Source: Escherichia phage vB_EcoM_G2494. From it: 64,000 nucleotides of DNA. The stretch lies in sequence record MK327935.1, one strand, 5' to 3'. Every line of letters begins with the position of its first letter. The stretch's first letter is position 1. Under the pieces are notes generated by a model. It had not been told where the DNA came from. It saw only the letters and a list, made by a program, of their open reading frames with translations, and did no database searches. The translations under genes and the position numbers were made by a program. Of this stretch, positions 6,139 to 54,372 are shown piece by piece.

Positions 6139-7868
6139 ATAACGCATTAACATCATTTCGCGGGATGCGCAAGGAAGCGGAAGAAAACCCGATTGATAAA
6201 CTTAACAAATTAGATAAACTTGATTCTATTGATAATTTGCAAGCTGCTACCGAATTGGTGGCAGAGACAGTAGAACAAAAATCTAATGAAGTTGTTGGTG
6301 CGGTCGAGGATAACACCGCAGCCAATGAATTGACGGCAGAAAATACACAATCTACCGCTGGCAATACCCAAAAAACTTATGAAGAATTGCAAAAACTCAA
6401 TAATTTCTCTTCTCAGATGAATGAGAAATTACGTGGTTTTGGTGTTATGATGGAACGTAGATTTGGTGTTGTCAGTAAAATGGCTAGCGGTATTGGTGCG
6501 ATTGAAGAAGCATTGAAAAAACCGGAACAACCGCAAACAATGCCATCACCTCAGCCAGTTTTGCCTACTGTACCGGAACAGCCTAACAATGACAACTATC
6601 AAGGTCTTCCAAAGAAAAAACCAGATGCTGATGACCGAAAGAAAAAGAACGTCACAGATAAGCGTAATGCTGATTCTATGGAAAATCTTCTTAAAGTTGT
6701 TCGTGGAGGATTTAAAGAAACCATAGGTATCTCTAATAAGGTCTTAGGGATGTTATTTAAGATCACCTTGACCGCTATGGCAGAAGCCGCAAAATGGGGT
6801 GCCATTTTGATGGGTATTGTTTTTGTCATTGATACCCTGATGGTTCATTTCAGATATTGGAGCGATTTATTCGAGACAAAATTCAGTGAATTTATGGATA
6901 AAGCCGGAGAATGGGCTGGACCAATTAGTGATATTCTAACAACTATTCGTCAAGTTCGAGATTATTGGTCTAAAGGCGAATATGGAGAGTTAATTAAATC
7001 TCTTGTTATGGGTATTGGTGATGCATTCTATAAAACCTTTATCCAACTTGATCGAATTATCACTACTGGTATTGCTAAAATTCTTCGCATGATCCCTGGT
7101 ATGGGTGATTATGCCGATAAGTTAGAATATGGTGCTTTAAAATCTGCTGTCGCTCAAGGCTATACGCCAAATGAAAGAGAACTCGAATTAATGGATAAGG
7201 TCGAGTCTGAACACGAAGAGGACAAATACGGGGAGCGTACTGGTTGGGCCGGAAAAGCCCGTGATATTGGTGAGGCTATCGGTGACTCCATTAAAGATAA
7301 AGTTAATGAAGGACTTGTTAGTCTGGGATGGAGAGATCAAAAGGATGTTGACGCAGAGAAGCGACAAGAAGAATTAAAGCGCGGGGAATATGAGTCTGTT
7401 TCTGCTGAACAACGATCTGCTAGTCGTAAACTTAGAATTAAAAGTGAGGGCGCGATCAATAATATTAATGAAGTTATGGAGAACTTGAGCGGTGACTATG
7501 ACAAAGAAAGAATGGGAGAGTTGAAAAGGGATATTGATGTTTACCGTGAGAAAGTTCAAGATCCTACATTAGTTGAAAGTGATCGTTCTCAGTTAGAGCG
7601 TCTTATTGAAAAATTTGATGAGATGTATGCTGATAAGACTAAGGGTGTTGTGCAAACACAGCCGGTTCCTGCAACTGAAACGGAAACAGCAAAACAAGCG
7701 GAGCGTACTGAACAAATGCAGAAACAAGCTGCAATCCAGCAACAAACGACAAATCAGACCTCAAACGTAAATAATACACAAATTGTAACAAACAATAGAA
7801 CTATTAAACAGGGTGCACCAACAACTAGAATTGATGCCCCCGGTACAATTAATATGGGGAACTTTTAA
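6135..7868 (+). CDS. 29: baseplate hub / tail-length determining protein gp29
   Basis: 577 aa, coiled-coil rich, synteny with T4 gp29. Confidence 0.75.
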   Translation: MNNALTSFRGMRKEAEENPIDKLNKLDKLDSIDNLQAATELVAETVEQKSNEVVGAVEDNTAANELTAENTQSTAGNTQKTYEELQKLNNFSSQMNEKLRGFGVMMERRFGVVSKMASGIGAIEEALKKPEQPQTMPSPQPVLPTVPEQPNNDNYQGLPKKKPDADDRKKKNVTDKRNADSMENLLKVVRGGFKETIGISNKVLGMLFKITLTAMAEAAKWGAILMGIVFVIDTLMVHFRYWSDLFETKFSEFMDKAGEWAGPISDILTTIRQVRDYWSKGEYGELIKSLVMGIGDAFYKTFIQLDRIITTGIAKILRMIPGMGDYADKLEYGALKSAVAQGYTPNERELELMDKVESEHEEDKYGERTGWAGKARDIGEAIGDSIKDKVNEGLVSLGWRDQKDVDAEKRQEELKRGEYESVSAEQRSASRKLRIKSEGAINNINEVMENLSGDYDKERMGELKRDIDVYREKVQDPTLVESDRSQLERLIEKFDEMYADKTKGVVQTQPVPATETETAKQAERTEQMQKQAAIQQQTTNQTSNVNNTQIVTNNRTIKQGAPTTRIDAPGTINMGNF

Positions 7869-8926
7869 TGAAAATTAGTGTTATCAATGATGCCGTTGAT
7901 AGCTTTAAAGCGGGGGTTAAAACCTCCGCTGGTTTTACCTCAAAAAATAAAGGGAAAACATTAACCGCTCAATTCCCCGCTGAACGTGCTAGCGGTAATG
8001 ATGCTAGCGGTTATTATATCAACGACTTATATAATAATGGTCTGTTATTCACTGCATACGATTACACATCTCGTACTACTGGATCGCTGCGTGATTTCAG
8101 GAAAAAGAAAAATGTTGCTAGCGGTTTTGGCGGTAGCGTTAATATCGCTGGTTTTGATTTAAATTTGGGTGGGAGAAATGCTGCATTTGACCGAGAGGCA
8201 ATTGCTAATATTCTTCTTCCTCGTAGTCAATCTGACGTTGACGCTGCCAGCCATAAGTTTAATGATGTTGGTGAATCTGTTATTTCTCGCGGCGGTGGTA
8301 CTTTAGGCGGTGCTCTTTCTAATATGGCATCTACTGCCGTTTTTGGTGGTATCGAAAGTATTACTGGTGGATACCTTGCCGATCACGGTGAACAGATTTA
8401 TAATACTGCGCGAAGCATGTATGCGGGTGCTGACGCACGAACGAAAAACTACGTATGGCATCTAACCCCACGTAGTATTGAAGACCTTCGCAATATTCTG
8501 ATCATATACGAAACGTTTTTAGAATTGTCTTATGGTTCTAGTGGTATTTCCAGCACCGCAAAAGAATTAAAAGCGGAAGTTGATGCGTGGTATAAAAATA
8601 CACTATTGAGAAAATCCACTCCAGAGGAAGCGAAGAGAAATGATACTCTGTTTGAAGGGATCACCGATTTTCTATCAAACGTAATTACTGTATCTAACCC
8701 GACAATATGGATGATCTCTAACTTCGGCAAGCGTACATCGTTTGAAGGGCGTAGCGATGCATTTGGTCCCGCTCAGATCTCAAGTGTACGTCTGGACAAG
8801 TCGCCTGATGGTAAGTTTAATGGCCTTGCTATTTCTCCTAACTTGCCGAGTACCTTTGTTCTGGAAGTAACATTTAGAGAGATCTTGACACTTTCCCGTG
8901 GTACTATATTTGGGAGTGCGGCATAA
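7868..8926 (+). CDS. 48: baseplate tail-tube junction protein gp48
   Basis: 352 aa, synteny. Confidence 0.75.
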   Translation: MKISVINDAVDSFKAGVKTSAGFTSKNKGKTLTAQFPAERASGNDASGYYINDLYNNGLLFTAYDYTSRTTGSLRDFRKKKNVASGFGGSVNIAGFDLNLGGRNAAFDREAIANILLPRSQSDVDAASHKFNDVGESVISRGGGTLGGALSNMASTAVFGGIESITGGYLADHGEQIYNTARSMYAGADARTKNYVWHLTPRSIEDLRNILIIYETFLELSYGSSGISSTAKELKAEVDAWYKNTLLRKSTPEEAKRNDTLFEGITDFLSNVITVSNPTIWMISNFGKRTSFEGRSDAFGPAQISSVRLDKSPDGKFNGLAISPNLPSTFVLEVTFREILTLSRGTIFGSAA

Positions 8927-9858
8927 TGTTTGATTTAAATGACTTTAACGAACAAGCCGCTAACCTTGACTTTCAGCGATCTAACTTATTCAGCGTGGCA
9001 TTTGCCACCACTCCAAGTAATAAGACACAAGCGATCCTAGAAAGTATGGGTGGTGCGGTATATGATATTATACCAAATGCATTAAATGACTATTTCGGGA
9101 TTACTCGTGGTGATTATACTGACGCATTAACAAATCTTGCTGTACAGGGTGTTAGGCGTGCTGTTGATTCATCTGGTGTCAAAAAGTATCTTTTAGGTGC
9201 AATGTCATCCCGCGTAGTTCAATCTCTTCTGGGGCAATTTGATGTTGGTACGTATGCTCTTGACTGGTTCAATATGGCATATAAGACAAGCGGTCTTCTG
9301 GTGTATGCTGTTAAGGTTCCAGAAAACAGATTGAATTATGAAATGGACCGCAACCACAATGCGCCAAACATTCGAATTACCGGACGTGATTTTGATCCGC
9401 TTGTATTGAGCTTTAGAATGGACTCTAGCGCATCAAACTATAGAGCAATGCAGGATTGGGTTAACTCAGTAGAAGACCCCGTTACAGGGCTTCGTGCGCT
9501 TCCTGTTGACGTTGAAGCAGATATTCAGGTTAACTTACATAACCGAATGGGAGTTCCTCACACGATCATGATGTTTAATGGTTGTGTTCCTGTTGGTGTG
9601 AGTGCACCGGAATTAACCTATGAAAATAACAACGAAATTACAACATTCGATGTTACTTTCGCATATCGTTCTATGCAAACTGGTGCTGTAGGAGAGCAAG
9701 CCGCGCGAGAATGGATTGAGGATAAGGCAATAAACGCAATAACAAACACTTTCGGCAATAATTTACTTGATAGTGGGTTATCTGCTGCTGGTAATGCTTT
9801 ATCGCGTCTAAATGGCGTTGGTGGGCGTGTGGTGAATACTGTCACTAACTGGTTCTGA
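8926..9858 (+). CDS. 54: baseplate tail-tube initiator gp54
   Basis: 310 aa, synteny. Confidence 0.75.
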   Translation: MFDLNDFNEQAANLDFQRSNLFSVAFATTPSNKTQAILESMGGAVYDIIPNALNDYFGITRGDYTDALTNLAVQGVRRAVDSSGVKKYLLGAMSSRVVQSLLGQFDVGTYALDWFNMAYKTSGLLVYAVKVPENRLNYEMDRNHNAPNIRITGRDFDPLVLSFRMDSSASNYRAMQDWVNSVEDPVTGLRALPVDVEADIQVNLHNRMGVPHTIMMFNGCVPVGVSAPELTYENNNEITTFDVTFAYRSMQTGAVGEQAAREWIEDKAINAITNTFGNNLLDSGLSAAGNALSRLNGVGGRVVNTVTNWF

Positions 9859-9864
9859 TAAGCG

Positions 9865-9896
9865 AAAGGCGGGGATTATCCCCCGCCTTTTTATTT
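9865..9896. terminator. bidirectional rho-independent terminator
   Basis: stem GGCGGGG/CCCCGCC with loop ATTATC, T-run on plus and A-run upstream; lies between convergent genes 54 and 9891 lipoprotein. Confidence 0.65.
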
Positions 9897-10376
9897 TGCT
9901 AAATCATTGCAATATTTTAGTGCCTTAGTTTGAAATTCTGCGCTGTTAAGTTCTTCATAACGGTCATAATCACCGTTTAATGCTGCCTTTCTTGCTTCTT
10001 GCTCTATCTGCATGTCAGACATGATAATACAGCGATCCCGTGCTTTCATCTTCTCAAGTTGTATAGACTCTTCTTTCTGCTTGCGCAATTCTTCTTGACG
10101 CTTCTTTTCTTCTTGTGCTTTCTCTTCCCGCGCTTCTTTGATTGCATCCTTGAACATCTGCGTTTGTGGTGCTAAACCAACTTTAACGCGATCTACGTCT
10201 CGACGTTCCATTTTAGAAATAAAGCATGATTCGATCTTATCATCACTTGCATATGTTGCTTTACATTCACGAAGCAAGAAAACCGGATCTGATTTAGCAT
10301 TCATCATAGCTTCCATGTTAGCACAACCAGTAAGCATGAATACAGCCGCAAGACCAATTAGTTTAATCATTTTCAT
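9891..10376 (-). CDS. putative lipoprotein with K/E-rich coiled-coil segment
   Basis: signal peptide MKMIKLIGLAAVFMLTGC with lipobox LTGC; start overlaps upstream ART gene stop. Confidence 0.6.
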   Translation of the reverse strand: MKMIKLIGLAAVFMLTGCANMEAMMNAKSDPVFLLRECKATYASDDKIESCFISKMERRDVDRVKVGLAPQTQMFKDAIKEAREEKAQEEKKRQEELRKQKEESIQLEKMKARDRCIIMSDMQIEQEARKAALNGDYDRYEELNSAEFQTKALKYCNDLAK

Positions 10377-11197
10377 TTAGTCACCTCACCGAAAATTGTA
10401 AATTGTCTACGATTCTCATCGCCGAAAGATTCTACTACGTCGTTTACCTTGACGCAAGTCCCGCGCGGTAAAATTACTTCACATTCGCAAGGGTTCCATG
10501 CAATGGACCCAACAACAAAACCTTTATGATCTTTTACATCAATCACCCATGATACATTACAAGAATGTTGCATCTTTCCGGTCATTGATTCATATCGATT
10601 CTCACAATAAAGGCTAGTGCTGTTTGAAAGCCATCCTCCAAAGATGATCGGTGTCATGCTAGTAGATACAAAGTTTTTAAAGGTAAATTCCTTATCTTCA
10701 ATAATACGCTCTATTGTCTGAATGTCAAGATGTTGACCGCGATAAAGAGTACCGTTTAACTTTTCGGTTTTATCCATGACACAATCCATCAAATCAACAA
10801 TCTCTGATATCTCATCGGTCATGTCTTCTTCCCCTAAGAGAGCACCATTTACCCATTCGTATTGTTCAGACACATAATCACAGATTGCATTATATTCTGC
10901 TGGGGTTATGTTGTTATGTTTGTAATGTTTGAATACATTATCTCCAAAGTCTTCGGAGTGTACTTCATACATCACATTAATGATTTTCTTTACAAATCCA
11001 TAATCTTGTGTCTCGCGCTCAAGGAAGCGGATAACCTTCACATAATCATCAAAGTTAATCTGATCGCTGATCATTTCAGTGATCATGTAACCATTAATAC
11101 CATCAATGTCATATGTTTCGATGTAATTATCCATACGTTCCATCATTGATTCGCGTGATTCTTCCGAAAGACGAAAATCCTGTAATTTCTTGAACAT
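10373..11197 (-). CDS. Alt-like mono-ADP-ribosyltransferase paralog (R-S-ExE type)
   Basis: LYRGQ, FVSTSMTP, NPCECEVILPRG motifs parallel the Alt C-terminal catalytic domain. Confidence 0.7.
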   Translation of the reverse strand: MFKKLQDFRLSEESRESMMERMDNYIETYDIDGINGYMITEMISDQINFDDYVKVIRFLERETQDYGFVKKIINVMYEVHSEDFGDNVFKHYKHNNITPAEYNAICDYVSEQYEWVNGALLGEEDMTDEISEIVDLMDCVMDKTEKLNGTLYRGQHLDIQTIERIIEDKEFTFKNFVSTSMTPIIFGGWLSNSTSLYCENRYESMTGKMQHSCNVSWVIDVKDHKGFVVGSIAWNPCECEVILPRGTCVKVNDVVESFGDENRRQFTIFGEVTK

Positions 11198-11220
11198 TTT
11201 AAACCTCCCATATAACAGAA

Positions 11221-11250
11221 AACGGGGCTAGTATAAAACTAGTCCCCGTT
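11221..11250 (-). terminator. hairpin terminator after alt
   Basis: 12-bp stem AACGGGGCTAGT/ACTAGTCCCCGTT, loop ATAAA. Confidence 0.5.
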
Positions 11251-11275
11251 TGAGTCAACCATTATTTCTTAAAAA

Positions 11276-13327
11276 TTACATTTTAAATTTATCTGGCATT
11301 GCGTCTACCGATACCAGATCAGCGATAAGCTGACGTAGAGTTGCCTTATCTGCTTTCTTACGTTCGGTTTTAGCTTCGGTAATAAATCTGGAGAAAGACA
11401 GGTCAGAAGCAGGTTTAACAACACCTTCACGGATGAATGCATCACCGTCCGCGATCATCTCACCAGATTCTTGTAATGCTGCCAGTTCATTTTTGTTCAT
11501 AATATGTGCCTCAATGTAATAAGTTTCTTGTGAATCCGTCGATGCCGTAGCACGAGTTACCGTATCAAAGGATAACACAACACCGCGAGGAAGTAAAATC
11601 TCGCATTCTTTGTAAGCAAATGCTTTGTTACCTACTGGCAACACAGGGATGTTTTCCGCGCCAGCAATGGAGAAAGCAACATTAGCGCCACCTTCACCGC
11701 GAGAGCCAGCCATAGAATCAACACCAGCAACGGCACTAGCCACGTTTGCATTCCAGCCGCCAAAAATGTTAGGTGCAAGGGAAGTGCTCACATAGTTTTT
11801 AAAGTAAAACGCTTTTTGCTTACGTGCAGTTTCCCACATTTGCGACCGGAAGTCCATACCACGATACAGAATAGTACCCGGATCAAGTTTAACGCCATAG
11901 TTGGAGAAGGCATTATCCAGTGCATCACACATCTTGACCAATTCTTCTGGATCTGCGATGCCTTCAAACTCTTCCAGCTTACGGTCGGTTAGGAAGTTGT
12001 TCATATTGATGTATGCTGCATCGGCATATTCGCTCAACACAAAACCTTCCGCGCCTGGCAGATCAAGATCAATATTTGCCATCATTTCACCCATGTTGCT
12101 AGCAATTGCTTCAAACATACCGGAAGCAACATTACGTAGGGCATCGGTTTTAATCTGGGTGATATGACTACGCAGCATTTCAGCTTTTACATCTGCTGGC
12201 ATAGACTGGTCTACTCGATCCATTGCCAGGGCGGTGATCTTGTTTTCGAATACTTCCTCGCTCATGATTTCTTTTAAGCGTTTGATTGATGCTGCGATAA
12301 CTTCCGCAGACAACGGATCATATTGATCCTGAACTTTTACCAGTTCGCTTACTGCGTATTTTGCATCGGCTTCGCTTTCAAAAATAGTACGCATGAAACC
12401 ATAGCGAGTGATAATATCACTTGTCCATTCATTCAGAGAACGGGCGGTTGAACGTTCTAAGGCTTGACGATCAATCAGAGTATTAAACTGTTTCTTAGGT
12501 TCGGCTTCGGTGATATCTTCTTCCGGTTTAAGATTAATTTTTTCTGGATGATTCACATAGTCGCTGTTATAGGTCGCTTGAGTTTTCAGCATTTCTTCTT
12601 TAGTCAAACGAGATTTAGCCGCTACGCGTTGTTCCGCTTCCGCGTTTCGTTCTTCTTCTGACACCAGACTAGCCGCATACGCCTCATCTTTAGTCAGAGA
12701 TTCACCAGTAGCCTTAGATACCCAGCGATCACCTAAATCACTTTCTACTTTAGTGAACAAGGAATCATCAAGTTTAATCCCTTTAATCTTATCAATCGCC
12801 ATACCGCGACGTTTGACAACAACTAAAGCGATCTTTTTGCTGGTCATTACTTCCTGCTGGAATACTTCAAACTTCGGTGTACGACGCACCAAACGCTCTA
12901 TAACGCGCTTAACCAGTTCGGTCTTACCTTTCATGCGGGATACGTTAAAACGGAACATAACAGCGTCTAATTGCGCTTTACGGGCTGTTTCCATAACCAC
13001 ATCAAAAGCACTTGCCATAACTGCAATCGGGTTATCGCCTAGACCATTTTTAAGCTGTACAATACGACCGCTTTTGTTCATTTCGCACAGTACAACATGT
13101 GCGGTCTTGTCACCCATACGAATGATTTTAGGTGTTTTGTTGGTGAAGTTACAAAGACGGACAATCACATCTTTATCGCGTGTCTGTACTGCAAAAAGCT
13201 GTTTAGGATTCTGCTTAGGCTTTAAGCACTGTACCGGAGCAATACTGCCAAAGTTTTCTTCCTCTTCCGTCAACAGCCATTTCTCGAAAGATTCAATCAT
13301 TAGATCGTCGATTTCTAAGTTAAACAT
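11276..13327 (-). CDS. alt: Alt ADP-ribosyltransferase (virion-packaged)
   Basis: 683 aa (T4 Alt 682); ILYRGMDFRS, YVSTSLAP, ECEILLPRG catalytic motifs. Confidence 0.85.
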   Translation of the reverse strand: MFNLEIDDLMIESFEKWLLTEEEENFGSIAPVQCLKPKQNPKQLFAVQTRDKDVIVRLCNFTNKTPKIIRMGDKTAHVVLCEMNKSGRIVQLKNGLGDNPIAVMASAFDVVMETARKAQLDAVMFRFNVSRMKGKTELVKRVIERLVRRTPKFEVFQQEVMTSKKIALVVVKRRGMAIDKIKGIKLDDSLFTKVESDLGDRWVSKATGESLTKDEAYAASLVSEEERNAEAEQRVAAKSRLTKEEMLKTQATYNSDYVNHPEKINLKPEEDITEAEPKKQFNTLIDRQALERSTARSLNEWTSDIITRYGFMRTIFESEADAKYAVSELVKVQDQYDPLSAEVIAASIKRLKEIMSEEVFENKITALAMDRVDQSMPADVKAEMLRSHITQIKTDALRNVASGMFEAIASNMGEMMANIDLDLPGAEGFVLSEYADAAYINMNNFLTDRKLEEFEGIADPEELVKMCDALDNAFSNYGVKLDPGTILYRGMDFRSQMWETARKQKAFYFKNYVSTSLAPNIFGGWNANVASAVAGVDSMAGSRGEGGANVAFSIAGAENIPVLPVGNKAFAYKECEILLPRGVVLSFDTVTRATASTDSQETYYIEAHIMNKNELAALQESGEMIADGDAFIREGVVKPASDLSFSRFITEAKTERKKADKATLRQLIADLVSVDAMPDKFKM

Positions 13328-13369
13328 TTTATATCCTCTAGTTGATAACCTATAAACCTATATTTATGA

Positions 13370-13399
13370 AAACGGGGCTTAACGCCCCCTTTTTATTAT
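13370..13399. terminator. hairpin GGGGCTTAACGCCCC with flanking T-run
   Basis: 5-bp GC stem plus CTTTTTATTAT; same hairpin recurs at 17933-17947. Confidence 0.4.
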
Positions 13400-13608
13400 A
13401 ATGCACCATCGAGCAATTGCTCTAAGGTGTATCCTGAATAGTCTTTTTCAATCAGGATATATTTTCCTACTCGTTTAATACAACCGCGCATTTCAACGTA
13501 TTCTGCGTAGTTGATGGTACGAGTTGTTCCATCTTCCAGTAATGCAGTACCGATTTCGTTAATGCGGTCATAAGTTACGTCGGTAATGATGATTTCGATG
13601 TTAGCCAT
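13396..13608 (-). CDS. hypothetical early protein (70 aa)
   Basis: ORF with RBS, own promoter cassette upstream. Confidence 0.55.
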   Translation of the reverse strand: MANIEIIITDVTYDRINEIGTALLEDGTTRTINYAEYVEMRGCIKRVGKYILIEKDYSGYTLEQLLDGAL

Positions 13609-13644
13609 TTGATACTCCTTAGTAGTTCGTTTCTGTATGTGTGT

Positions 13645-13673
13645 ATTATGATATACACCCTCTGTTATGTCAA
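13645..13673 (-). promoter_or_regulatory. sigma70-like early promoter (TTGACA-17-CATAAT)
   Basis: minus-strand TTGACA at 13673-13668, 17-bp spacer, CATAAT at 13650-13645. Confidence 0.6.
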
Positions 13674-13679
13674 CAACTT

Positions 13680-13859
13680 TTAGAACATTTTTGAAATTAA
13701 TTCTGCTTTGATTTCGCAGAGAACATCTAAAGATTTCTCGTCACCCGCTTTTGCTGCTTCTGCTTGCATTTTTGAAATGGCTTCAATCTCAGTGCAATTA
13801 TAAGCCGCTTGAACTTTAGCGATTGCGAGGATTGCCGATTCGATGGTTAAGTGTTTTAT
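13680..13859 (-). pseudogene. small ORF (~59 codons) with ATA in the start-codon position (decayed start or AUA initiation)
   Basis: cassette RBS GGAGAATCAAAC followed by ATA where paralogous cassettes have ATG; first in-frame ATG leaves only 29 codons. Confidence 0.35.
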
Positions 13860-13891
13860 GTTTGATTCTCCTTTCGTTTCGGTATGTGTGT

Positions 13892-13920
13892 ATTATAGGG
13901 GATCGATGATCCCCTGTCAA
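13892..13920 (-). promoter_or_regulatory. sigma70-like early promoter with palindromic spacer
   Basis: TTGACA, spacer GGGGATCATCGATCCCC (17 bp, inverted repeat), TATAAT. Confidence 0.65.
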
Positions 13921-13928
13921 CAACTTTT

Positions 13929-14447
13929 TTAGTTATTTTTTAATTGCTCATCTTGCAATAGGGCAATCACATGCTGGCGATGTTCTTCCGATTGAGGCAC
14001 ACCGAAAAAGTTTGTTTTGTAGAAATACTCTAATCGGTCTTCTCGTGTGCTCTCTTCCATCATGATCGCGGGTAGTCCGAGATTTCGGAAACGTCGCTTT
14101 TCTGCTGGCGTAAAATCACTGTAATACATCATAGAATCATCATTACCAGCAATGCTAAACTCATCCTTCATGAAGGAGAATATTGCGTTTAAACGCTGTT
14201 TACCGTCCACGATTTCGATCTCATAGCGAGAGCCATCATCAATCTTAGCCATTGCGATAGCACCAACCGGAAAATCATTAATCAGGTTTTCGATAAACAT
14301 ACGTTTGTTTTCGGTGTCCCATACTAAAGGACGCTGATAATCTGGGTTCATGTTGATATAGCCATCTTCTAACCATGCATCATAAACAGAGATGACAAAG
14401 TTTTTAGTATTGGTATAGTAACGGCGTTTAGGCGTTAAACGGTTCAT
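13929..14447 (-). CDS. DUF262 / ParB-like (GmrS-like N-terminal domain) protein
   Basis: NPDYQRPLVW and VDGKQRL motifs; ATG at 14447 with AGGAG RBS (ORF track start 14483 over-extends). Confidence 0.65.
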   Translation of the reverse strand: MNRLTPKRRYYTNTKNFVISVYDAWLEDGYINMNPDYQRPLVWDTENKRMFIENLINDFPVGAIAMAKIDDGSRYEIEIVDGKQRLNAIFSFMKDEFSIAGNDDSMMYYSDFTPAEKRRFRNLGLPAIMMEESTREDRLEYFYKTNFFGVPQSEEHRQHVIALLQDEQLKNN

Positions 14448-14448
14448 G

Positions 14449-14778
14449 TTATAGTCTCCTGAATGGATCATCACGTAAATCAATATCTTTTAAGAACTCA
14501 TCCCATGAATGGCGGATATTGTTCTTAATTCTCCAGATAAGAGCAGGGATTGAACGCTCTCCCATCTGGAAGTATGGATCATATGATCCGTATGCCCAAT
14601 ATGCTACTACAATTCCACAATCAGCGCAATAGTATTCTATTTCACTTGCTGGCGACAAAAGTCCATCAATATGATCGGTGATCTTGCTTTCGATGTTATG
14701 GCTATGACAATCAGGGCAACGGATGCAATGACCTTGTTTATCGTAATTTGATGTTAGTGAATACTTAAACAATCTCAT
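14449..14778 (-). CDS. Zn-ribbon protein
   Basis: CIRCPDCHSH...YYCADCG (two CxxC pairs). Confidence 0.55.
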   Translation of the reverse strand: MRLFKYSLTSNYDKQGHCIRCPDCHSHNIESKITDHIDGLLSPASEIEYYCADCGIVVAYWAYGSYDPYFQMGERSIPALIWRIKNNIRHSWDEFLKDIDLRDDPFRRL

Positions 14779-15494
14779 TATAGATCCTTATTTGCTTCAA
14801 ATACTGCCTTTGCGAATCCTCGCGGGGTAAGTGACCTTATAGTCTTTGTTTTCGTTCCTTTCCCGCCTAGCTTAGAATGCTGTTTACTGTACCCTTTATT
14901 AATCTGCAACGGTTTCTTTTCTGGCATTATAAAGCCTTGTCCGGTCCATAAGCAAGTCTTTTTTGGGTACATATCACGGGCGGCAATATACTCAGGAAAC
15001 GTAGGATGCTTATCATCTTCCGGCAAATAACCGCCATATTCCCACGGATGGAACATATAATCAGGCTTACGCCACATGCTAGAGATAACGCTTACAGGAT
15101 TCTCTATCATGTAGGGAACTCCTAGCCATTCACCCAAATAAGCGGTTATTTTGGCTGCCCTTACATCATGAACTTGAATCAATGGTCCTTGTTCTCGTTT
15201 CTTTCGTTCAAAGTGCGCAGCGCCACTAACAGCTAAATTGGTGCATGGTGGGAATGCAAAGATAATATCCGGTTTCCCCCATTCAAGGTCCATTGCTCTT
15301 TCTAGCCAGTTAAAATCAATCCATGTGTTTACATAGGTAATGTTTGGATGTTCAAATCTGGTATTATACTTTTTGTATGTTCCGTGGTCGCCATCGTCAG
15401 CATTAAAGCAGATCACCTTATGACCTGCTTTAGCCCATTCTAACCCCATTATCCCCGATCCGTCAAAGTTACAGAATATTAATTTTTGTTTCAT
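14778..15494 (-). CDS. DNA cytosine-5 methyltransferase-like protein
   Basis: FDGSG (motif I-like), FPPCT (PC motif IV), IENP (ENV motif VI-like); 238 aa. Confidence 0.45.
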   Translation of the reverse strand: MKQKLIFCNFDGSGIMGLEWAKAGHKVICFNADDGDHGTYKKYNTRFEHPNITYVNTWIDFNWLERAMDLEWGKPDIIFAFPPCTNLAVSGAAHFERKKREQGPLIQVHDVRAAKITAYLGEWLGVPYMIENPVSVISSMWRKPDYMFHPWEYGGYLPEDDKHPTFPEYIAARDMYPKKTCLWTGQGFIMPEKKPLQINKGYSKQHSKLGGKGTKTKTIRSLTPRGFAKAVFEANKDL

Positions 15495-26953: not shown

Positions 26954-27852
26954 TAAAAGTCTCCGTAGTTAACCTGAAAACATTCTACACCAATTGAGCG
27001 GTACATGTCAACCACTTGATCACGGTCATCTACTGCCAACACAACATGATAACGCGGTGCAATTTCAGAGAAGAAAATCTCTTTCTTCACTTCATGATCA
27101 GGACGACGATCATTAGTTTCACGTTGAAAGTGATCGCTAGGTTCAATACCCTGTTCACGCAACCATTGCAGAGTATCTTCTTCGCAAACATCCTCACGCC
27201 CTGAGCATGTAATGATACGATAACCATTATCACGATACAGTTTAAGCATTTCGATCACTTGCGGACGCGGTTTATCTTCTTTGACCTTTGTCCAGTCAAA
27301 CGGATGACGACCGCCCTTATCCGCTAATGTTCCATCAATATCAAAGATCACTGCCTTCGGCAGCATGGTATTCGGTTTGTATACTTCTTGACCCATATAT
27401 TCCTGCATCAGATAAAATTGGTTACGCAAATGAGAAAGTGGAATTGCTTTCTCGCCTCGATAGAAATTACGTTTCTTTAGTGTCTCAAATGATTCATTGA
27501 ACACTTGTTCAGTATACACCGCGTTAAATTCTTTTGCAAGTTCTTTGTAGAATACACGATGTTTTTCTTTCAGGTTAGTATCAGAGATAATGATACTTAA
27601 TCCGCGTGATAGAGTCTCACGAGCAATCATTCTCTGAATAGACTCTACCAGCTTTTCTTTTTCCTTAGTATACTTGTATTTCAAATGTGAGTCAACACCA
27701 AACAACATAAGACGAAGATCATCACGATTCACATTACGATAATTACTAAACCGGTTACATGTTTCCATAGCCCATGTAGTTTTACCAGACCTAGAACAAC
27801 CAACGGTTAAAATCACTTCACATTTCGGCATTATTTCTCCTTCGGTTTGCAC
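26953..27852 (-). CDS. pseT: polynucleotide 5'-kinase / 3'-phosphatase
   Basis: Walker A GCSRSGKTT, RDD motif, HAD motif DIDGTLA; 299 aa (T4 PseT 301). Confidence 0.85.
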   Translation of the reverse strand: MQTEGEIMPKCEVILTVGCSRSGKTTWAMETCNRFSNYRNVNRDDLRLMLFGVDSHLKYKYTKEKEKLVESIQRMIARETLSRGLSIIISDTNLKEKHRVFYKELAKEFNAVYTEQVFNESFETLKKRNFYRGEKAIPLSHLRNQFYLMQEYMGQEVYKPNTMLPKAVIFDIDGTLADKGGRHPFDWTKVKEDKPRPQVIEMLKLYRDNGYRIITCSGREDVCEEDTLQWLREQGIEPSDHFQRETNDRRPDHEVKKEIFFSEIAPRYHVVLAVDDRDQVVDMYRSIGVECFQVNYGDF

Positions 27853-28286
27853 CGTTCCTCATTAAGTTCTTTTCGATAATAACACATGATCAACTTACTT
27901 TCAAGTGTATATCTCTTAATATCCGCAAGCCAGACTCTGAATTTTTGGGAGTCCTCCCACGACATAGAAACTCTAGGTTTACCGTCTATTGTATCCACTT
28001 TCAGGTCAATGTCAACTTTTTCTATTGGTGCTGGTAGTTGAGGATGTAATTTCGGTTCCTGTGAATACTGGTCCATTGTACACGAAGAAAGAGCAAATAC
28101 AATAGGCACAGCGAAGACATGGATTATGGCGGTCTGAAAATTCTTATGTGCTTTCTTAAACATCCGGTGTATCACGAAAATTGAAAACACCATCAGGATA
28201 ATAATAATGCTTGCCCCTATCCCCAGATAATCAACCAGATTAAAATTGCTTATCTGCTCTTGCGTAGGCAATATTTCTATGCTCAT
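27831..28286 (-). CDS. putative outer-membrane spanin-like lipoprotein (o-spanin position)
   Basis: hydrophobic segment with lipobox LSSC; start ATGA-coupled to i-spanin stop with AAGGAGG RBS; alternative internal start at 28163. Confidence 0.4.
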   Translation of the reverse strand: MSIEILPTQEQISNFNLVDYLGIGASIIIILMVFSIFVIHRMFKKAHKNFQTAIIHVFAVPIVFALSSCTMDQYSQEPKLHPQLPAPIEKVDIDLKVDTIDGKPRVSMSWEDSQKFRVWLADIKRYTLESKLIMCYYRKELNEERCKPKEK

Positions 28287-28606
28287 TTAGTAGCCTCCTT
28301 TAATTCTTCGGTAAACTCCTTAAATGAATCATTAAGCTGTTTCTCTACCAACTTGGGTTTTTGTGCTACTACATAGCCTCGTGTAGCGTCTTTCATTGCT
28401 TTGTTTTGTTCTTCTGCAAACTTAGTTCTTATTCCGTACATCTCCTTTTGTAGTGAGTCTACGACCTTCATCTTTTCATCGGTCTTTTTCTTATACTCTG
28501 TAAATTCCCGATTCAGTCGATCTACCTCCTTTTTATTTTCCCACCACATATTGCCACCTACCCCTAGCAACACAGAGATGATAACAATGTATATCAGCTT
28601 TGACAT
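28283..28606 (-). CDS. putative inner-membrane spanin (Rz-like)
   Basis: N-terminal TM LIYIVIISVLLGVGG then coiled-coil; ORF track start 28657 over-extends into terminator hairpin. Confidence 0.5.
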   Translation of the reverse strand: MSKLIYIVIISVLLGVGGNMWWENKKEVDRLNREFTEYKKKTDEKMKVVDSLQKEMYGIRTKFAEEQNKAMKDATRGYVVAQKPKLVEKQLNDSFKEFTEELKEATK

Positions 28607-28650
28607 ATTACCCCCAACGACAAAAGGCGGGGAACTAGCCCCGCTTATTA

Positions 28651-29820
28651 TTACCAATCAATCTTATCAGCCGGAATCAGTTTCTTATAATTCCGTAGAT
28701 AGTAAGTTTTCATTGAATCCAGAATACGGTCATAATCAAGACCATCAAATGCAATCATCAGACACATGAAAATATATGCTTGTGCATCACCATGTTTACG
28801 TGATTCGATAGTCGCATTTGATGCATATGTCTTTCTGTCTTCTCCCGCGTGTGCGTTATAAAATTCTGTTGCTGTAGTGAAGGCATTGCGAAGAATAGAC
28901 CTGAATGCTTCCTCGAATAACTCGATTCGTTCCAGTGCTTCCGGTTCGCCTTCATATGCAGCACGCAAATCATCGGTTTCGCTTTCTACGACATAGTAGA
29001 TCAGGTTATTAGGAAACATCGATGTGTTTTTAATGTTATGCACACCAATATACCATTCACTCTTCACTTTGAACATTTGACCGTCTTTAGTGCGTGCAAC
29101 AATTCCTTCGATACCTTCTGCGGTCCGAACTTCATCAAGAATATTGCTAAAATGCGCTGAATCAACCTGTAACGCATTTACCAGATGAGGACGTAGGATT
29201 GCGTCAGCAAATAGCATTTGATGCGGTACGTACTCTCCTGTGACGTTATGGCGTACATTCAGAAGTGTTAGCGACGGTTCAGAATATTCTACAACAATTC
29301 GGTTGCTGGGTGCTGTATATTCAAAGTTGAAAGTATAATCAGACCCAATATCAGCAATCTTAGCGCGTAGATCCGCATACTTCTCTGAATACAGAAGACC
29401 GTTTGCTCTCTCTGCCTGGCTTGAGTACAAGGCCGCTTTAGACTTCAACTGAACATAGCCGTTATCAATGTAGGTGCTTACTAGACTACCGTCCATTTTG
29501 TCCATGACCATTTCCACATCTTCCGGCTTAAAGCGAGCGCGATCATTCTCACCCAAATTAAAAAACTTCTCCATAGGACGAGATGCGATGCGGACCGGAC
29601 GACCTTTATCGTCAATTTCAAACATGATCCCGCGACACTCTAACGCATCTGGTTTATTCCACATTTCCGGTTTGCTCAAGTACAGATAGCTAAAAATGCG
29701 CATACGGGTTTGCATCGCCGTAATTTCATCTTTGTAATAGAACGTATCAGATCCGTCACACAGTGCCATCAGATTTTTGAACAATGCTAAAACTTTTTTG
29801 TTGTTTTCTTTTGTTGACAT
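28651..29820 (-). CDS. rnlA: RNA ligase 1
   Basis: KxDG adenylation motif DKMDGSL; ALECRGIMFE and RIASRPMEKFFNL match T4 Rnl1; start may be an internal Met (overlap with denA). Confidence 0.8.
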   Translation of the reverse strand: MSTKENNKKVLALFKNLMALCDGSDTFYYKDEITAMQTRMRIFSYLYLSKPEMWNKPDALECRGIMFEIDDKGRPVRIASRPMEKFFNLGENDRARFKPEDVEMVMDKMDGSLVSTYIDNGYVQLKSKAALYSSQAERANGLLYSEKYADLRAKIADIGSDYTFNFEYTAPSNRIVVEYSEPSLTLLNVRHNVTGEYVPHQMLFADAILRPHLVNALQVDSAHFSNILDEVRTAEGIEGIVARTKDGQMFKVKSEWYIGVHNIKNTSMFPNNLIYYVVESETDDLRAAYEGEPEALERIELFEEAFRSILRNAFTTATEFYNAHAGEDRKTYASNATIESRKHGDAQAYIFMCLMIAFDGLDYDRILDSMKTYYLRNYKKLIPADKIDW

Positions 29821-50754: not shown

Positions 50755-53535
50755 ATGGCAGATTTACAGAGAATCCAATTTAAAAGAACAAGTACGGCAG
50801 GTCGCAAGCCGGATGCGAATATTCTAACTCCGGGTGAACTTGCTATTAACCTAGCGGATCGAGAACTATATACAAAAGATGACAGCAATAATGTAATTAC
50901 TTTGGGACACTTTCGCGGTGAGTTGCCATCTGATGCAAATTTAGATAATTATGGACCTACTGGTAAATTTACTGGCGTTTGGTCTAAATCAACTTCAACA
51001 AATGCGCAGCCAGCAAATAAATTCCCAGAAGAGAATGCTGTAGGTGTATTAGAAGTATTTGTGGCTGGTCAATTTGCTGGCACTCAGCGTTATACTGTTC
51101 GGTCTGGTAACGTTTATATCCGTTCTTTGTCTGCGAAATGGAATGGCGTAGATGGTCCATGGGGTCCGTGGCGCAATATTCAAACTGGCACACGTCCACT
51201 ATCAACTACACTAGACTTGAATACTTTAGGTGATGCTTCTCATTTTGGGTTATGGCGAAATAGTTCAAGTTCCATTGCATCATTTTCTCGAAATTACCCA
51301 GAAGAAGGTGGTCTCGCGCAAGGTCTTTTAGAAATTTATGAAGGTGGTAACTATTCTCGCACGCAACGTTATACTACCCGAATGGGTGTTGTATATGTTC
51401 GTTGTCTTGCTGGTGCATGGGATCCAGAAGCTCCGAATTGGGGACCGTGGCAACAAGTAGGTATGGTTACTCCCAACACATTCTATGACGGGGATCTTAA
51501 TAATTTTCGTTCTCCTGGCTTATATAATATTTTAGGCACTGATGCCGTTATTAACCGTCCAGTTGCAGAAGGTGTTCCGGTTGAGATGACCGGATTGCTT
51601 GAGGTTAAACAGCGTGCTTCCGGTGGCGCTATTTTCCAACGTTTCACTACCGCAGGAACGGGATCTACTACCCGTGGTCGTGTTTTTGAACGTGCAATGA
51701 CAAATAATATCTGGGGAAATTGGCATGAAGTATATACATCTTATTCTCTGCCAATTACTTTGGGTATGGGTGGTATTAAAACTCAATTAGCGGAGCTAGA
51801 TTGGCAAACATTTGATTTTGTTCCTGGTAGTATGTTTAGCGTTCCTTTGAACAAAATAAAGAACATGCCAGCAAATATGGATTGGGGTGCGATTGACGGA
51901 AACTTGGTTATGTTTTCTGTCGGTCCTAGCGAACACACTAGCACAGGGCGTACTGTTCAGGTTTGGCGTGGTACTGTATCCCAGACAAACTACCGTTATT
52001 TTGTCGTTCGTGTGTTCGGTAATTCTGGAAATAGAACTTGTACAGTTCGCCGTGTTGTTCTTGAAGACGGATCACATACTTGGACTGCTAAACAAGATTT
52101 TAATGGTGCTGTCAACTTTGGTGGTTCGACAACTTTTAAGTCCACTACAACTTTTAACACAGAAGTTAAATTCCGTTCATCCAATGCATTTAAAATGTAT
52201 GGCGGTAATTTTGGCACAATTTTCCGTAATGATGGTGAAAGTCTTTATATTCTTTCCACCGACGAAAATGATCAAGATGGAAACTTTAATACAAATAGAC
52301 CTTTCCGCTATCAATTAAAAACTGGCGATGTTACTTTGGGTGGCACTAGCGGTGCTAACGCTTTAGTATTAAAAGGCGGTTCTCTTGCTGCTACCTTTAG
52401 CGGTGATGTTAATTTAAGTAAAGGTACGCTGACGTTTGAAGCGGGTGGTAAGCAATCACGCGATTATTTCCGGTTTAATCATTGGGGTGATAGCAATAAC
52501 GCTCGTGATAACATTATTCAGTTAGAAGATAGTAAAGGCGCTCATTTTTCCACTGAACGTACTTTAGCGACTGGTGCAATTAAAACTAAATTCTTTGGTG
52601 AAGTTGAATCAACTGGTCGATTGACTATTAAACGTCCGGGTGGTGCTATTGTATTATCGACTACAGCCAGCAACGCTTTGCATATTCGCGGTGACGTAGA
52701 CGGGAATGGTAACTGGTATATTGGTAAAGGTGGTGCTGATAATTCGCTAGCATTTTATAGCTATGCTACTCAGGCGGCAGTACATATAACAAACAATGGT
52801 GAGATTGCGTTAAACCCGCAAAATACCTTAATGGTTAACGTTAACCGCGATCGTATGTATATCAATGGTGCAAGTTGGGTTGCCAGACAACCAGGTGATT
52901 GGGGCAACCAATGGCGAGTAGAAGCTCCATTATTCGTTGATCATGGTTATGTTGGTCAAGATAGTTATTATCCTATTCTTAAAGCAAGAAGCGTTATAAC
53001 CAATCAAGGATATAGCACCGCTGTTGACTTTGGTATGCGTCGTATTCCATCACAGTGGGGGCAAGCAATCATTCGTGTCGGATCCACGGAGGCTTCTCCT
53101 GATGCTGGACACCCACAAGCTGTGTTTGAATTCCATCATGATGGGTTCTTTTATACACCAGGAAATGGTAGCTTTAGCGATGTGTATATTCGTTCTGACT
53201 CCCGTCTTAAGATTAATAAAGAAGAGTTAGAAAACGGAGCACTTGAAAAAGTATGCCGTCTGAAAGTTTATACTTACGATAAAGTTAAGTCTATTAAAGA
53301 TCGTAGTGTGATTAAACGTGAAGCTGGTATTATTGCTCAGGATCTTGAAAAAGAATTGCCGGAAGCTGTATCTAAAGTTGAAGTTGATGGATCTGATGTT
53401 CTGACAATTTCTAACTCGGCAGTGAATGCTCTTTTAATTAAGGCTATTCAGGAAATGAGTGAAGAAATTAAAGAATTGAAAACTCCTTTCTTTACTAAAA
53501 TTGCTCGCAAAATTAGTAAATATTTTAAATTCTAA
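50755..53535 (+). CDS. 37: long tail fibre distal subunit gp37 with C-terminal intramolecular chaperone domain
   Basis: N-terminus IQFKRTSTAGRKPDANILTPGELAINL matches gp37; last ~113 aa SDSRLK...GIIAQDLEKELPEAV...LLIKAIQEM resemble the S74 self-cleaving chaperone domain. Confidence 0.8.
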   Translation: MADLQRIQFKRTSTAGRKPDANILTPGELAINLADRELYTKDDSNNVITLGHFRGELPSDANLDNYGPTGKFTGVWSKSTSTNAQPANKFPEENAVGVLEVFVAGQFAGTQRYTVRSGNVYIRSLSAKWNGVDGPWGPWRNIQTGTRPLSTTLDLNTLGDASHFGLWRNSSSSIASFSRNYPEEGGLAQGLLEIYEGGNYSRTQRYTTRMGVVYVRCLAGAWDPEAPNWGPWQQVGMVTPNTFYDGDLNNFRSPGLYNILGTDAVINRPVAEGVPVEMTGLLEVKQRASGGAIFQRFTTAGTGSTTRGRVFERAMTNNIWGNWHEVYTSYSLPITLGMGGIKTQLAELDWQTFDFVPGSMFSVPLNKIKNMPANMDWGAIDGNLVMFSVGPSEHTSTGRTVQVWRGTVSQTNYRYFVVRVFGNSGNRTCTVRRVVLEDGSHTWTAKQDFNGAVNFGGSTTFKSTTTFNTEVKFRSSNAFKMYGGNFGTIFRNDGESLYILSTDENDQDGNFNTNRPFRYQLKTGDVTLGGTSGANALVLKGGSLAATFSGDVNLSKGTLTFEAGGKQSRDYFRFNHWGDSNNARDNIIQLEDSKGAHFSTERTLATGAIKTKFFGEVESTGRLTIKRPGGAIVLSTTASNALHIRGDVDGNGNWYIGKGGADNSLAFYSYATQAAVHITNNGEIALNPQNTLMVNVNRDRMYINGASWVARQPGDWGNQWRVEAPLFVDHGYVGQDSYYPILKARSVITNQGYSTAVDFGMRRIPSQWGQAIIRVGSTEASPDAGHPQAVFEFHHDGFFYTPGNGSFSDVYIRSDSRLKINKEELENGALEKVCRLKVYTYDKVKSIKDRSVIKREAGIIAQDLEKELPEAVSKVEVDGSDVLTISNSAVNALLIKAIQEMSEEIKELKTPFFTKIARKISKYFKF

Positions 53536-53571
53536 CAACAAGGGGGCGTTGCCCCCTTTGGAGTATAAATT

Positions 53572-54372
53572 ATGGCAGTAGTTGGTGTTCCTGGTTGGAT
53601 TGGAAGTTCAGCCGCAAATGAAACAGGACAACGATGGATGAGTCAAGCGGCTGGTCAATTAAGATTGGGTGTTCCTTGCTGGATGAGTCAATTTGCAGGT
53701 CGCTCGCGAGAAATTATTCATACTGTAGGAGCAAACCACAATTTTAATGGTCAGTGGTTCCGTGATAGATGCTTTGAAGCTGGCGGTGCACCTATTGTAT
53801 TCAATATTGTTGGTGATATCGTTTCTTATTCTAAAGATGTACCGCTTTTCTTTATGTATGGTGACACTCCTAACGAATACGTTGTCCTTAATATTCATGG
53901 TGGTGTCCATATGTGGGGTCGAGGTGGTAATGGTGGATACACTCACTCAGGTGGAGATGGTAACGGTACACAAGGCGGTCATGTTATTCAAAATGATATC
54001 GGTGGACGGCTTCGTATTTGGAACTACGGTGTTATAGCTGCTGGCGGTGGTGGCGGTGGTGGTATTGCATATCGTCCACACTCAGGGGCAAACTGGCAAG
54101 ATATCGGTGGCGGTGGCGGTCGACCTTTCGGTGGTGCTGGCGGTGGCGGTTATTCCGGTGGTGCTGCTTCTTATGAAGGTCCGGGTGGTGGTTACAACTA
54201 TGGTAACGCACACTCCGGCGCGGGTGGTAATGCTGGCGCTGCTGGTCAGAATGCATGGTCTGATGGCGGTAAAGTTCTTAAAGTTGGTGTTGGTGGTGCT
54301 TCTGGTCATGCCGTGTTTGGATCTTCTCCAACTTGGGGCGCTGTAGGGACAATTTATGGACCTTACATTTAA
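53572..54372 (+). CDS. 38: gp38 receptor-recognising adhesin (T2-type, glycine-rich motifs)
   Basis: N-terminus [45 protein letters not shown]; several GGGGGG motifs separating variable segments. Confidence 0.8.

Follow-up and report, generated by a model that had tools for sequence, protein, structure and literature searches.

Phage T4 packages Alt in its virion. Receptor masking is the role of certain small phage lipoproteins, among them T5 Llp and the Cor proteins. Many phage ADP-ribosyltransferases (ARTs) are delivered by the virion (PMC9503650). In RB49, a paralog of alt, RB49ORF183c, was published in 2006 (PMC1524935), and the PeSL motif class was described by Arbiol et al. in 2010 (PMC2839356); Cor is mentioned in PMC11162368. 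Here, we analyzed a locus in sequence record MK327935.1 (Escherichia phage vB_EcoM_G2494), which belongs to a Krischvirus of the RB49/JSE type (98 to 99% identical). The window is the whole stretch of 64,000 nucleotides that was analyzed. Between alt and gene 54, in a variable region, it carries an ART gene equivalent to the published RB49 paralog and a lipoprotein gene. Both were annotated in GenBank beforehand. An initial annotation, made from the letters alone, had placed a second Alt-like ART beside a lipoprotein gene at 9891-11197, next to a full-length Alt. On re-reading, the coordinates and motifs of the pair held, and the full-length Alt was correctly placed at 11276-13327, with matches to phrog_802 and PF03496 and the alt label in JSE (Table 1).

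The explanation that we favor, and think rather probable as a whole, is an early two-gene unit made of a short Alt-paralog ART and an independent, exchangeable lipoprotein. This transcription unit would be headed by a PeSL element and closed by a strong terminator. The short ART would be an active arginine-specific mono-ADP-ribosyltransferase, as its motifs suggest. Infected cells would make it early, in their cytoplasm, with no packaging into the virion, and it would modify host proteins, complementing both injected Alt, the product of a late gene, and a separate ModB-like enzyme. The second gene would encode an unrelated exported lipoprotein, with a mature domain that recombination exchanges, as a cassette, for deeply divergent alleles.

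Table 1. Features of the ART-lipoprotein locus, in window coordinates
Feature	Position	Strand	Remarks
Terminator hairpin (13374-13388), then late-promoter-like CATAAATA (13361-13368), upstream of alt	13361..13388	-	Read from sequence
Full-length Alt, 683 aa, upstream paralog of the short ART	11276..13327	-	phrog_802 (E = 2e-179) and PF03496; annotated alt in JSE
PeSL-type element	11222..11258	-	Sigma-70 TTGACT 11258-11253, 17-nt spacer, TATACT 11235-11230; overlapping stem-loop 11249-11222, then T-run
Short ART gene, Shine-Dalgarno sequence GGGAGG	11204..11209	-	Read from sequence
Short Alt-derived ADP-ribosyltransferase, 274 aa	10373..11197	-	RB49 ORF183c; JSE EpJSE_00190
Catalytic Arg153 codon (LYRG)	10739..10741	-	Unchanged in 6 homologs (identity as low as 42%)
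S178-T179-S180 motif codons	10658..10666	-	Invariant in 6 homologs
E238-C-E240 codons (ExE, ARTT loop)	10478..10486	-	Both Glu invariant in 6 homologs
ATGA stop/start overlap of ART and lipoprotein	10373..10376	-	Read from sequence
Lipoprotein precursor, 161 aa	9891..10376	-	phrog_16112; "putative lipoprotein" as W115_160
Signal peptide and lipobox LTG-C18	10323..10376	-	Nucleotide-level conservation across alleles
Replaceable cassette, mature lipoprotein domain	9908..10319	-	At least 3 alleles, ~30% identical, within Krischvirus
Strong GC hairpin terminator, common to the lipoprotein gene and convergent gene 54	9864..9891	.	Read from sequence

The R-S-ExE signature that had been read in the 274-aa open reading frame is there in full, as LYR153GQ, S178-T-S180, and E238-C-E240-V. 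We found matches of the short ART to the Pfam family PF03496 (ADPrib_exo_Tox) over residues 82 to 266 (E = 4e-16; 59.3 bits, cutoff 23.4) and to phrog_15144 (E = 8e-198), and these profile matches are far above chance level. The ART fold is supported by its AF2 model (pLDDT 75), which hits the toxin structures of Vis, C3bot, Certhrax, iota Ia, and CDTa at E values of 3e-10 to 1e-8. [quoted passage not shown] Arg, STS, and ExE are also retained in relatives that are 31% and 44% identical. These profiles and motifs place the short ART in the R-S-E Alt/VIP2 family (PF03496), as a true second enzyme of the Alt type.

Profile-profile comparison (hhalign) aligned residues 47 to 273 of the short ART with residues 379 to 610 of the window Alt (probability 99.9%; E = 1.4e-33). 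Pairwise BLAST of the two proteins covers ART residues 151 to 257 only, and for this reason the similarity beyond that segment was overlooked in a reading done without tools. The "unrelated N-terminus" ascribed to the 274-aa protein is correct for the first ~46 residues, which have no counterpart in Alt, but not from residue 47 onward, where the two proteins align.

The lipoprotein open reading frame begins with MKMIKLIGLAAVFMLTG-C18, a textbook lipoprotein signal in which the n-region, h-region, and lipobox read MKMIK-LIGLAAVFM-LTG-C18. The LTGC lipobox noticed at the outset fits the PROSITE-style rule [LVI][ASTVI][GAS]C, which across the window picked, among real genes, only this lipoprotein and the o-spanin. 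It is kept family-wide, in 10 of 10 representatives down to 25% identity. Four Cys are also invariant across the family, and the protein probably carries two disulfides. Under the Lol sorting rule, Ala at position +2 sends a lipoprotein to the outer membrane. The residue after the lipobox Cys is Ala in the window lipoprotein and Ala or Ser in the family, and by this rule the protein should lie in the outer membrane, facing the periplasm. The AF2 model is confident and all-helical (pLDDT 88), and the K/E-rich segment is one predicted 62-residue helix (residues 72 to 133).

An exhaustive HMM search of 1.84 billion clustered representatives found relatives of the lipoprotein only in the RB49-like lineage, in all ~10 representatives; the one further hit, to a 4,432-aa protein (E = 3e-4), we set aside as spurious. 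Searches of Pfam, PADLOC, and PHROGs with the lipoprotein returned no family of known function and nothing consistent, and its fold search returned no structural relatives. We rejected a spanin as a candidate identity, as the true pair lies at window positions 27831-28286 and 28283-28657 (phrog_812 and phrog_739) and the lipoprotein has no C-terminal transmembrane domain. By tblastn, homologs of T4 Sp and Imm were found neither in the window nor in JSE outside its 100- to 105.7-kb segment, and hhalign against T4 Sp gave a probability of 6%, over the signal peptide only. The apparent absence of Sp and Imm marks a possible vacancy for superinfection exclusion.

Aligned with E26, the window is at least 95% identical in nucleotide sequence on both flanks of the cassette and 30 to 44% identical inside it. 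The borders are sharp, at window positions 10320 and 9907, and the recombination breakpoints lie a short way beyond the junction of the two genes, where the signal peptide codons of the lipoprotein end. A divergent allele, ~30% identical in its mature part, occurs in 8 of 58 Krischvirus records, and across these 58 sequenced Krischviruses the short ART is 96.7 to 99.6% identical. The allele types include those of the window, E26, and Whisky, and metagenomes contain many type-A alleles at 81 to 97%. In L022, dS is 0.19 for the ART gene and 0.93 for the lipoprotein gene, the latter being like that of gp54 and gp48. The overall dN/dS of the lipoprotein, 0.11 to 0.47, does not establish positive selection, since close pairs differ at too few sites and the deep comparisons are saturated. 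Replacement of the mature domain by other alleles fits a binding protein in phage-phage or phage-host conflict.

By analogy, our best guess for the role of the lipoprotein is early superinfection exclusion or a block to phage entry. More specifically, it may belong to a new family, confined to RB49-like phages, of early outer-membrane-anchored periplasmic proteins that block competing T4-type phages, a proposal that we offer tentatively. The lipoprotein would then stand in for Sp and Imm, apparently missing from RB49-like phages. Cassette exchange of the mature domain would reflect an arms race with the entry machinery of incoming phages, and the fixed place after the short ART might represent coordinated early expression that takes over the cell and locks the door.

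A protein of the Llp/Cor type would instead act on the phage's own outer membrane receptor, shielding the infected cell and the released progeny. The early promoter, the predicted outer membrane lipoprotein, and the allelic diversity are consistent with receptor masking, and T5 Llp and Cor offer precedents of small phage lipoproteins in such a role. However, the allele is independent of the gp37-gp38 module: the window has a T6-like gp37-gp38 cassette and JSE has another, but their lipoproteins are 96.9% identical, and we found no correlation between lipoprotein allele and receptor-binding module. Nor does the lipoprotein resemble, in sequence, any Pfam or PHROG family with a known function. 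We consider receptor masking unlikely and keep early exclusion or a block to entry as our best guess.

Upstream of the short ART gene, GGTTGACT-17-TATACT matches the early-promoter consensus of RB49 (PMC1524935). This promoter and its embedded stem-loop are conserved in relatives whose ART is 31 to 63% identical, and the stem shows a compensatory change among relatives (TAG/CTA versus CAG/CTG). With its sigma-70 consensus, GC stem-loop, AT-rich upstream stretch, and intergenic location, the segment from 11258 to 11222 is, on sequence grounds, a PeSL element. An Rfam scan of window positions 9500 to 14000 gave no matches. Upstream of alt, the hairpin and CATAAATA occupy the same position as the hairpin and TATAAATA of T4 and T2 alt, and distant relatives have AATAAATA or TCTAAATA at the corresponding site. 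This motif is of the xATAAATA type and lies at the site of T4's late promoter. Together, the promoter motifs suggest that the short ART is expressed early and alt late.

Alternatively, the short ART could be packaged as another internal head protein and injected with the DNA, as Alt is. Its derivation from Alt, the full-length second Alt copy that T2-type phages have at the same place, and the virion delivery of many phage ARTs would all suit such a protein. So would an L-S-E tripeptide at residues 10 to 12, which may resemble the prohead protease site. However, the short ART lacks the whole N-terminal 375 aa of Alt (the Tevenvirinae_ADPRT region) and its conserved C-terminal tail of ~70 residues, and it has a sigma-70/PeSL promoter in contrast to the late-type promoter of alt. 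Further, the N-termini of short ART family members are poorly conserved, and a comparison with Alt for capsid-targeting N-terminal similarity gave nothing convincing. Literature searches on the virion proteome of Krischvirus and on exclusion turned up nothing relevant. Packaging of the short ART is quite improbable, and we retain synthesis early in infection as the preferred reading.

The stop codon of the ART gene does overlap the start of the lipoprotein gene, as first read, in an ATGA, and relatives keep an overlap too, as TAATG or ATGAATAA. Every lipoprotein family member checked in context, down to 25% identity, lies directly 3' of a short ART, with codons abutting or overlapping. At related loci with a contig extending beyond the ART gene, a lipoprotein-family gene comes next in every one. 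These observations support one conserved transcription unit, predicted to be early. Overlapping genes and conserved gene order are normal for T4-type genomes. The pair was never seen apart, and a functional link, instead of mere inheritance of the gene order, could be the reason.

Were the ART and the lipoprotein a single functional system, for example, in envelope remodeling or exclusion, the ART might modify an envelope or lipoprotein-biogenesis target or even the lipoprotein precursor itself. Adjacency without exception, a stop/start overlap kept in three forms across the family, a common promoter and terminator, and the same narrow distribution of both families are in keeping with such a system. 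However, Alt, gp54, and gp48 are equally syntenic, and adjacency therefore says little. The two proteins are also predicted to end up in different compartments. The lipoprotein would be exported, whereas the short ART lacks a signal peptide and NAD is found in the cytoplasm, which makes the short ART a predicted cytoplasmic enzyme; modification of periplasmic or envelope targets by the ART, as suggested initially, is not borne out on present evidence. In addition, a 99.6% identical ART is found with lipoprotein alleles that are ~30% identical, and recombination breakpoints separate the two genes. We regard a single system as very unlikely. The proposed coupling of the pair holds insofar as they have a common conserved transcription unit and fixed adjacency, but they are not inherited and do not evolve as a unit (58 ARTs at 96.7 to 99.6%, 8 lipoproteins at ~30%). 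We conclude that the two genes are carried on one transcript, possibly with coupled translation, but that neither depends functionally on the other.

T4 RefSeq notes call alt.-1 and alt.-2 a decayed alt duplication, and Tequatrovirus-like contigs contain split copies, 273 and 415 aa long. The short ART could likewise be a decaying, nonfunctional remnant, but its reading frame is intact, its catalytic residues stay unchanged in lineages as distant as 31% identity, and its own promoter and Shine-Dalgarno sequence are conserved. Its dN/dS is 0.01 to 0.07, and by this measure the short ART is under strong purifying selection. A decayed remnant is highly improbable.

JSE has a separate ModB-like gene, EpJSE_00014, which matches T4 ModB at 8e-11 and holds the site beside srd, where the short ART is not found. 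A tblastn search of T4 with the short ART as the query found neither ModA nor ModB. That the 274-aa protein is a ModB (or ModA) ortholog relocated next to alt, a case against itself that the initial annotation had named, is suggested by comparable small size and probable early expression but has next to no probability, as it is ruled out by the distinct srd-adjacent gene and BLASTP gives E = 0.067 to the JSE ModB-like protein versus E = 1e-33 to the Alt family.

RB49-like phages would thus have three ARTs: Alt, which is injected; its short paralog, made early; and a ModB-like enzyme. There is little else new for the enzyme. The lipoprotein is the more useful lead, with deeply divergent surface alleles on a conserved scaffold (lipobox and four Cys). 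These alleles are exchanged even among phages with 98% identity elsewhere, the signature expected of direct molecular conflict. Like T4 Sp and Imm, T5 Llp, and Cor, the lipoprotein is predicted to be a small early-expressed envelope protein; it shares a helical, disulfide-containing character with Sp and its lipoprotein nature with Llp and Cor, but it has no detectable homology to any of them.

The upstream element resembles the PeSL cassettes of RB49 and phi1 (PMC2839356) in its strong sigma-70 promoter, embedded GC stem-loop, and AT-rich upstream stretch and in heading nonessential genes in a hyperplastic region. However, the lipoprotein allele swaps break in the signal peptide codons and near the stop codon or terminator, not at PeSLs. 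T4 ModA and ModB are probable functional analogs of the short ART, as small free-standing R-S-E ARTs made early, but they show no significant sequence similarity to it, and a ModB-like gene is already at the syntenic site in the phage.

The closest relative is Alt itself. With T4 Alt, the short ART shares a homologous catalytic module that includes ~100 residues upstream of the Arg, the motifs LYRG, FxFKNxVSTSxxPxIFGGW, and ExEviLPRG, and a genomic position adjoining alt. It differs in its early sigma-70 promoter, where Alt has a late one, and in the loop after GGW (NSTSLYCENRY), which is kept within the short family, unlike in Alt; the targets of the two enzymes may therefore differ. Tandem duplication of alt between alt and gene 54 is also seen in T2 "alt.-1" (685 aa), the T4 alt.-1/alt.-2 remnants, and 44RR ORF187c/188c. 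Those second copies are full length or retain the N-terminal part, whereas the Krischvirus copy consists of the catalytic C-terminal module only and, unlike them, has gained its own early promoter. Tandem duplication of alt has thus ended differently across T4-type lineages, and the duplicates offer a natural experiment on how ART target specificity is split between copies.

The short ART, a 274-aa Alt-like ADP-ribosyltransferase, is a known and conserved paralog of the full-length Alt encoded upstream of it. In the region from 9700 to 13700, the window is 98.4 to 98.9% identical to 58 GenBank Krischvirus genomes, RB49, Phi1, JSE, and GEC-3S among them. The short ART is annotated in JSE as "ADP-ribosyltransferase" (EpJSE_00190) and the lipoprotein encoded directly downstream as "hypothetical protein" (EpJSE_00189); in W115, the pair is "ADP-ribosyltransferase" and "putative lipoprotein." As both genes are annotated in GenBank, and the enzyme was published in 2006 as an alt paralog (Nolan et al., RB49ORF183c, PMC1524935), the core of the finding is already on record.

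The ORFs, coordinates, and motifs of both genes in the initial annotation all agree with the sequence. The 274-aa protein scores 59 bits against PF03496 (cutoff, 23.4), and its R-S-ExE signature (L151-Y-R153-G-Q, S178-T-S180, and E238-x-E240) is unchanged across six homologs with identities down to 42%. Relatives sharing 31% and 44% identity also keep the Arg, STS, and ExE motifs. An AlphaFold model (pLDDT 75) matches the toxin ARTs Vis, C3, Certhrax, iota, and CDT with E values of 1e-10 to 1e-8. Pairwise BLAST aligns only residues 151 to 257 with Alt, but profile-profile comparison of the two families aligns ART 47 to 273 with Alt 379 to 610 (E = 1.4e-33). Thus, the N terminus, originally called unrelated, resembles Alt back to residue 47. 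The short ART is a catalytic module from the C-terminal part of Alt; it lacks the first ~375 residues and the conserved C-terminal tail of Alt and has a stretch of ~46 residues of its own. It is under purifying selection (dN/dS = 0.01 to 0.07) and is probably enzymatically active. The loop after STS, GGW-LSNSTSLYCENRYES (residues 187 to 207), is near-invariant across the short-ART family, differs from that of Alt, and has the lowest model confidence (pLDDT <50); as a candidate substrate-recognition element, it would distinguish the short ART from Alt.

The suggestion that the 274-aa protein is a relocated ModB ortholog is rejected: in JSE, a separate 167-aa gene annotated modB adjoins srd, the syntenic T4 position, its product (T4 ModB, 8e-11; ModA, 2e-6) is the only ModB match across the genome, and the short ART matches it at E = 0.067 at best. 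With this ModB-like gene besides Alt and the short ART, Krischviruses encode three ARTs.

Upstream of the short ART, GGTTGACT is followed after 17 nt by TATACT, in agreement with the RB49 early-promoter consensus GTTGAC, and a GC stem-loop followed by a T-run overlaps the -10 element. This element is kept in relatives with ART identity down to 31 to 63%, with a compensatory stem change (TAG/CTA in the window, CAG/CTG elsewhere). It is consistent with the promoter-early stem-loop (PeSL) cassettes, whose action as both promoter and terminator was shown in RB49 and phi1 (Arbiol et al. 2010, PMC2839356). Upstream of alt, a hairpin is followed by CATAAATA; the corresponding site carries a hairpin with the late promoter TATAAATA in T4 and T2 and AATAAATA or TCTAAATA in distant relatives. 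From these signals, we infer that alt is a late gene, as in T4, whose Alt is a packaged head protein (PMC9958956), and that the short ART, probably made early, and the lipoprotein would form an early bicistronic unit.

A sigma-70-like motif inside the ART gene (TTGACA, 16 nt, TATTAT; 11 of 12 consensus positions) precedes the lipoprotein start by ~330 nt. A separate lipoprotein transcript could arise from it; the match may equally be due to chance. Two further PeSL-type early promoters (GTTGTTGACA, 17 nt, TATAAT or CATAAT) lie on either side of small uncharacterized ORFs located upstream of alt; in one, a GGGGATCATCGATCCCC stem-loop sits between -35 and -10 (see the table).

Coordinates of the features discussed
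Feature	Coordinates	Strand	Remark
Genes 48 and 54	7868-9858
Hairpin terminator, strong	9864-9891		after lipoprotein gene
Lipoprotein gene	9891-10376	minus	161-aa precursor
Divergent stretch of lipoprotein gene	10320-9907	minus	window versus E26
Short ART gene	10373-11197	minus	274 aa
GGW-LSNSTSLYCENRYES loop	~10577-10639	minus
Sigma-70-like motif in ART gene	10701-10728	minus
PeSL of short ART	11222-11258	minus	stem-loop, 11249-11222
alt	11276-13327	minus	683 aa
PeSL-type promoter	13645-13673	minus
PeSL-type promoter	13892-13920	minus	GGGGATCATCGATCCCC stem-loop
184-aa ORF	13929-14483	minus
DNA methyltransferase gene	14778-15494		after 184-aa ORF
Spanin pair	27831-28657		by pseT
Distal long-tail-fiber/adhesin module	50853-54378		ORF 50755-53535 and following
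Second Alt copy, T2	L008:2247-4304
Second Alt copy, Tequatrovirus-like	L015:3183-5248

The ART stop overlaps the lipoprotein start, as first described, in ATGA, and overlap or abutment persists across relatives in several forms. Both families are small: at 90% identity, there are 6 clusters for the short ART (each sharing ≥42% identity with the window protein) and 46 for the lipoprotein, and exhaustive HMM searching of 1.84 billion representatives yields only ~10 for the latter. The order Alt, short ART, lipoprotein, and convergent gp54 holds in all contigs examined, including the most distant members (lipoprotein 25 to 28% and gp48/gp54 70 to 79% identical to the window). Small families, constant order, and kept overlap point to an ART-lipoprotein link, and we conclude that the two are likely co-transcribed. 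However, every neighboring gene shows the same synteny, and adjacency by itself therefore says little. The ART is 96.7 to 99.6% identical across 58 of 58 GenBank Krischviruses, but in 8 of the 58 the lipoprotein allele is only ~30% identical, which argues against a specific partnership. In the metagenomic phage L022, dS is ~0.19 for Alt and ART, versus 0.93 for the lipoprotein, 0.77 for gp54, and 0.95 for gp48; the lipoprotein groups with gp54 and gp48, placing a breakpoint at the ART/lipoprotein junction. The ART lacks a signal peptide, the lipoprotein carries an export signal, and the two would thus act in different compartments. Therefore, neither the proposed functional pairing nor a distinct ART target in the periplasm or envelope is supported; allele, dS, synteny, and signal-peptide comparisons gave no evidence of functional interdependence.

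Of remaining interest are the lipoprotein family, an orphan one, and the cassette-like replacement of its alleles, a description of which we did not find in the literature searched. The lipoprotein signal is canonical, as claimed (MKMIK / LIGLAAVFM / LTG-C18). There are at least three allele types (window, E26, and Whisky/JK32). Between the window and E26, either flank is at least 95% identical in nucleotides, and identity of 30 to 44% is confined to a stretch that begins immediately after the codon of the Cys predicted to be lipid-modified and ends about five codons short of the stop. Constant across the family are the lipobox, a G-[DN]-Y motif, and four more Cys (C38, C51, C116, and C156), together with a handful of scaffold residues; the rest is variable. 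N- and C-terminal subdomains are combined differently in different members, suggestive of intragenic recombination. The model (pLDDT 88) is all-helical with a central helix of 62 residues, and its helix positions make disulfides C38-C51 and C116-C156 plausible. In the closest comparison, which has five substitutions, dN/dS is 0.40, versus 0.04 to 0.14 for neighbors; deeper comparisons are saturated.

An early exclusion role for the lipoprotein is conceivable, though a guess, since tblastn found no T4 Sp or Imm homologs in JSE (all but 100 to 105.7 kb) or the window. An Llp/Cor-type receptor-masking model is weakened because, in the window and JSE, alleles do not follow the receptor-binding module: the lipoproteins are 96.9% identical despite different gp37-gp38 cassettes. 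A spanin role is rejected, as the spanin pair lies by pseT.

The window's gp37-gp38 cassette is T6/T2-like, 85 to 89% identical in nucleotides to Tequatrovirus phages and 100% to Krischvirus G5211; just 4 of 58 Krischvirus records have it at ≥90% identity. In JSE, flanks 94 to 99% identical enclose an unrelated cassette. This looks like exchange of a receptor-binding module between genera. Genes 48 and 54, at the baseplate-tail-tube junction, are mosaic within the genus (versus L004, L005, and L022): identity is ~78% in nucleotides and 76 to 89% in amino acids in Whisky, JK32, and L022, and 99% in E26 and JSE. The adjoining Alt and ART are 97 to 99% identical. The 184-aa ORF, "DUF262 domain protein" in W115 with a PF03235 (GmrSD_N) match in related contigs, encodes a protein with a domain similar to the N-terminal one of GmrSD, a type IV restriction enzyme.

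T4-type phages repeatedly carry a duplicate alt between alt and gene 54, and its fate differs among them. In T2-type phages, T2 among them, a complete second Alt (685 aa, "alt.-1") comes directly after alt; in some Tequatrovirus-like metagenomic contigs, it is divided into two ORFs, one N-terminal (273 aa) and one with the ART (415 aa); and in T4 it is reduced to the remnants alt.-1 and alt.-2. The T2 full copy, the divided copies, and the T4 remnants are a series of stages of decay or specialization.
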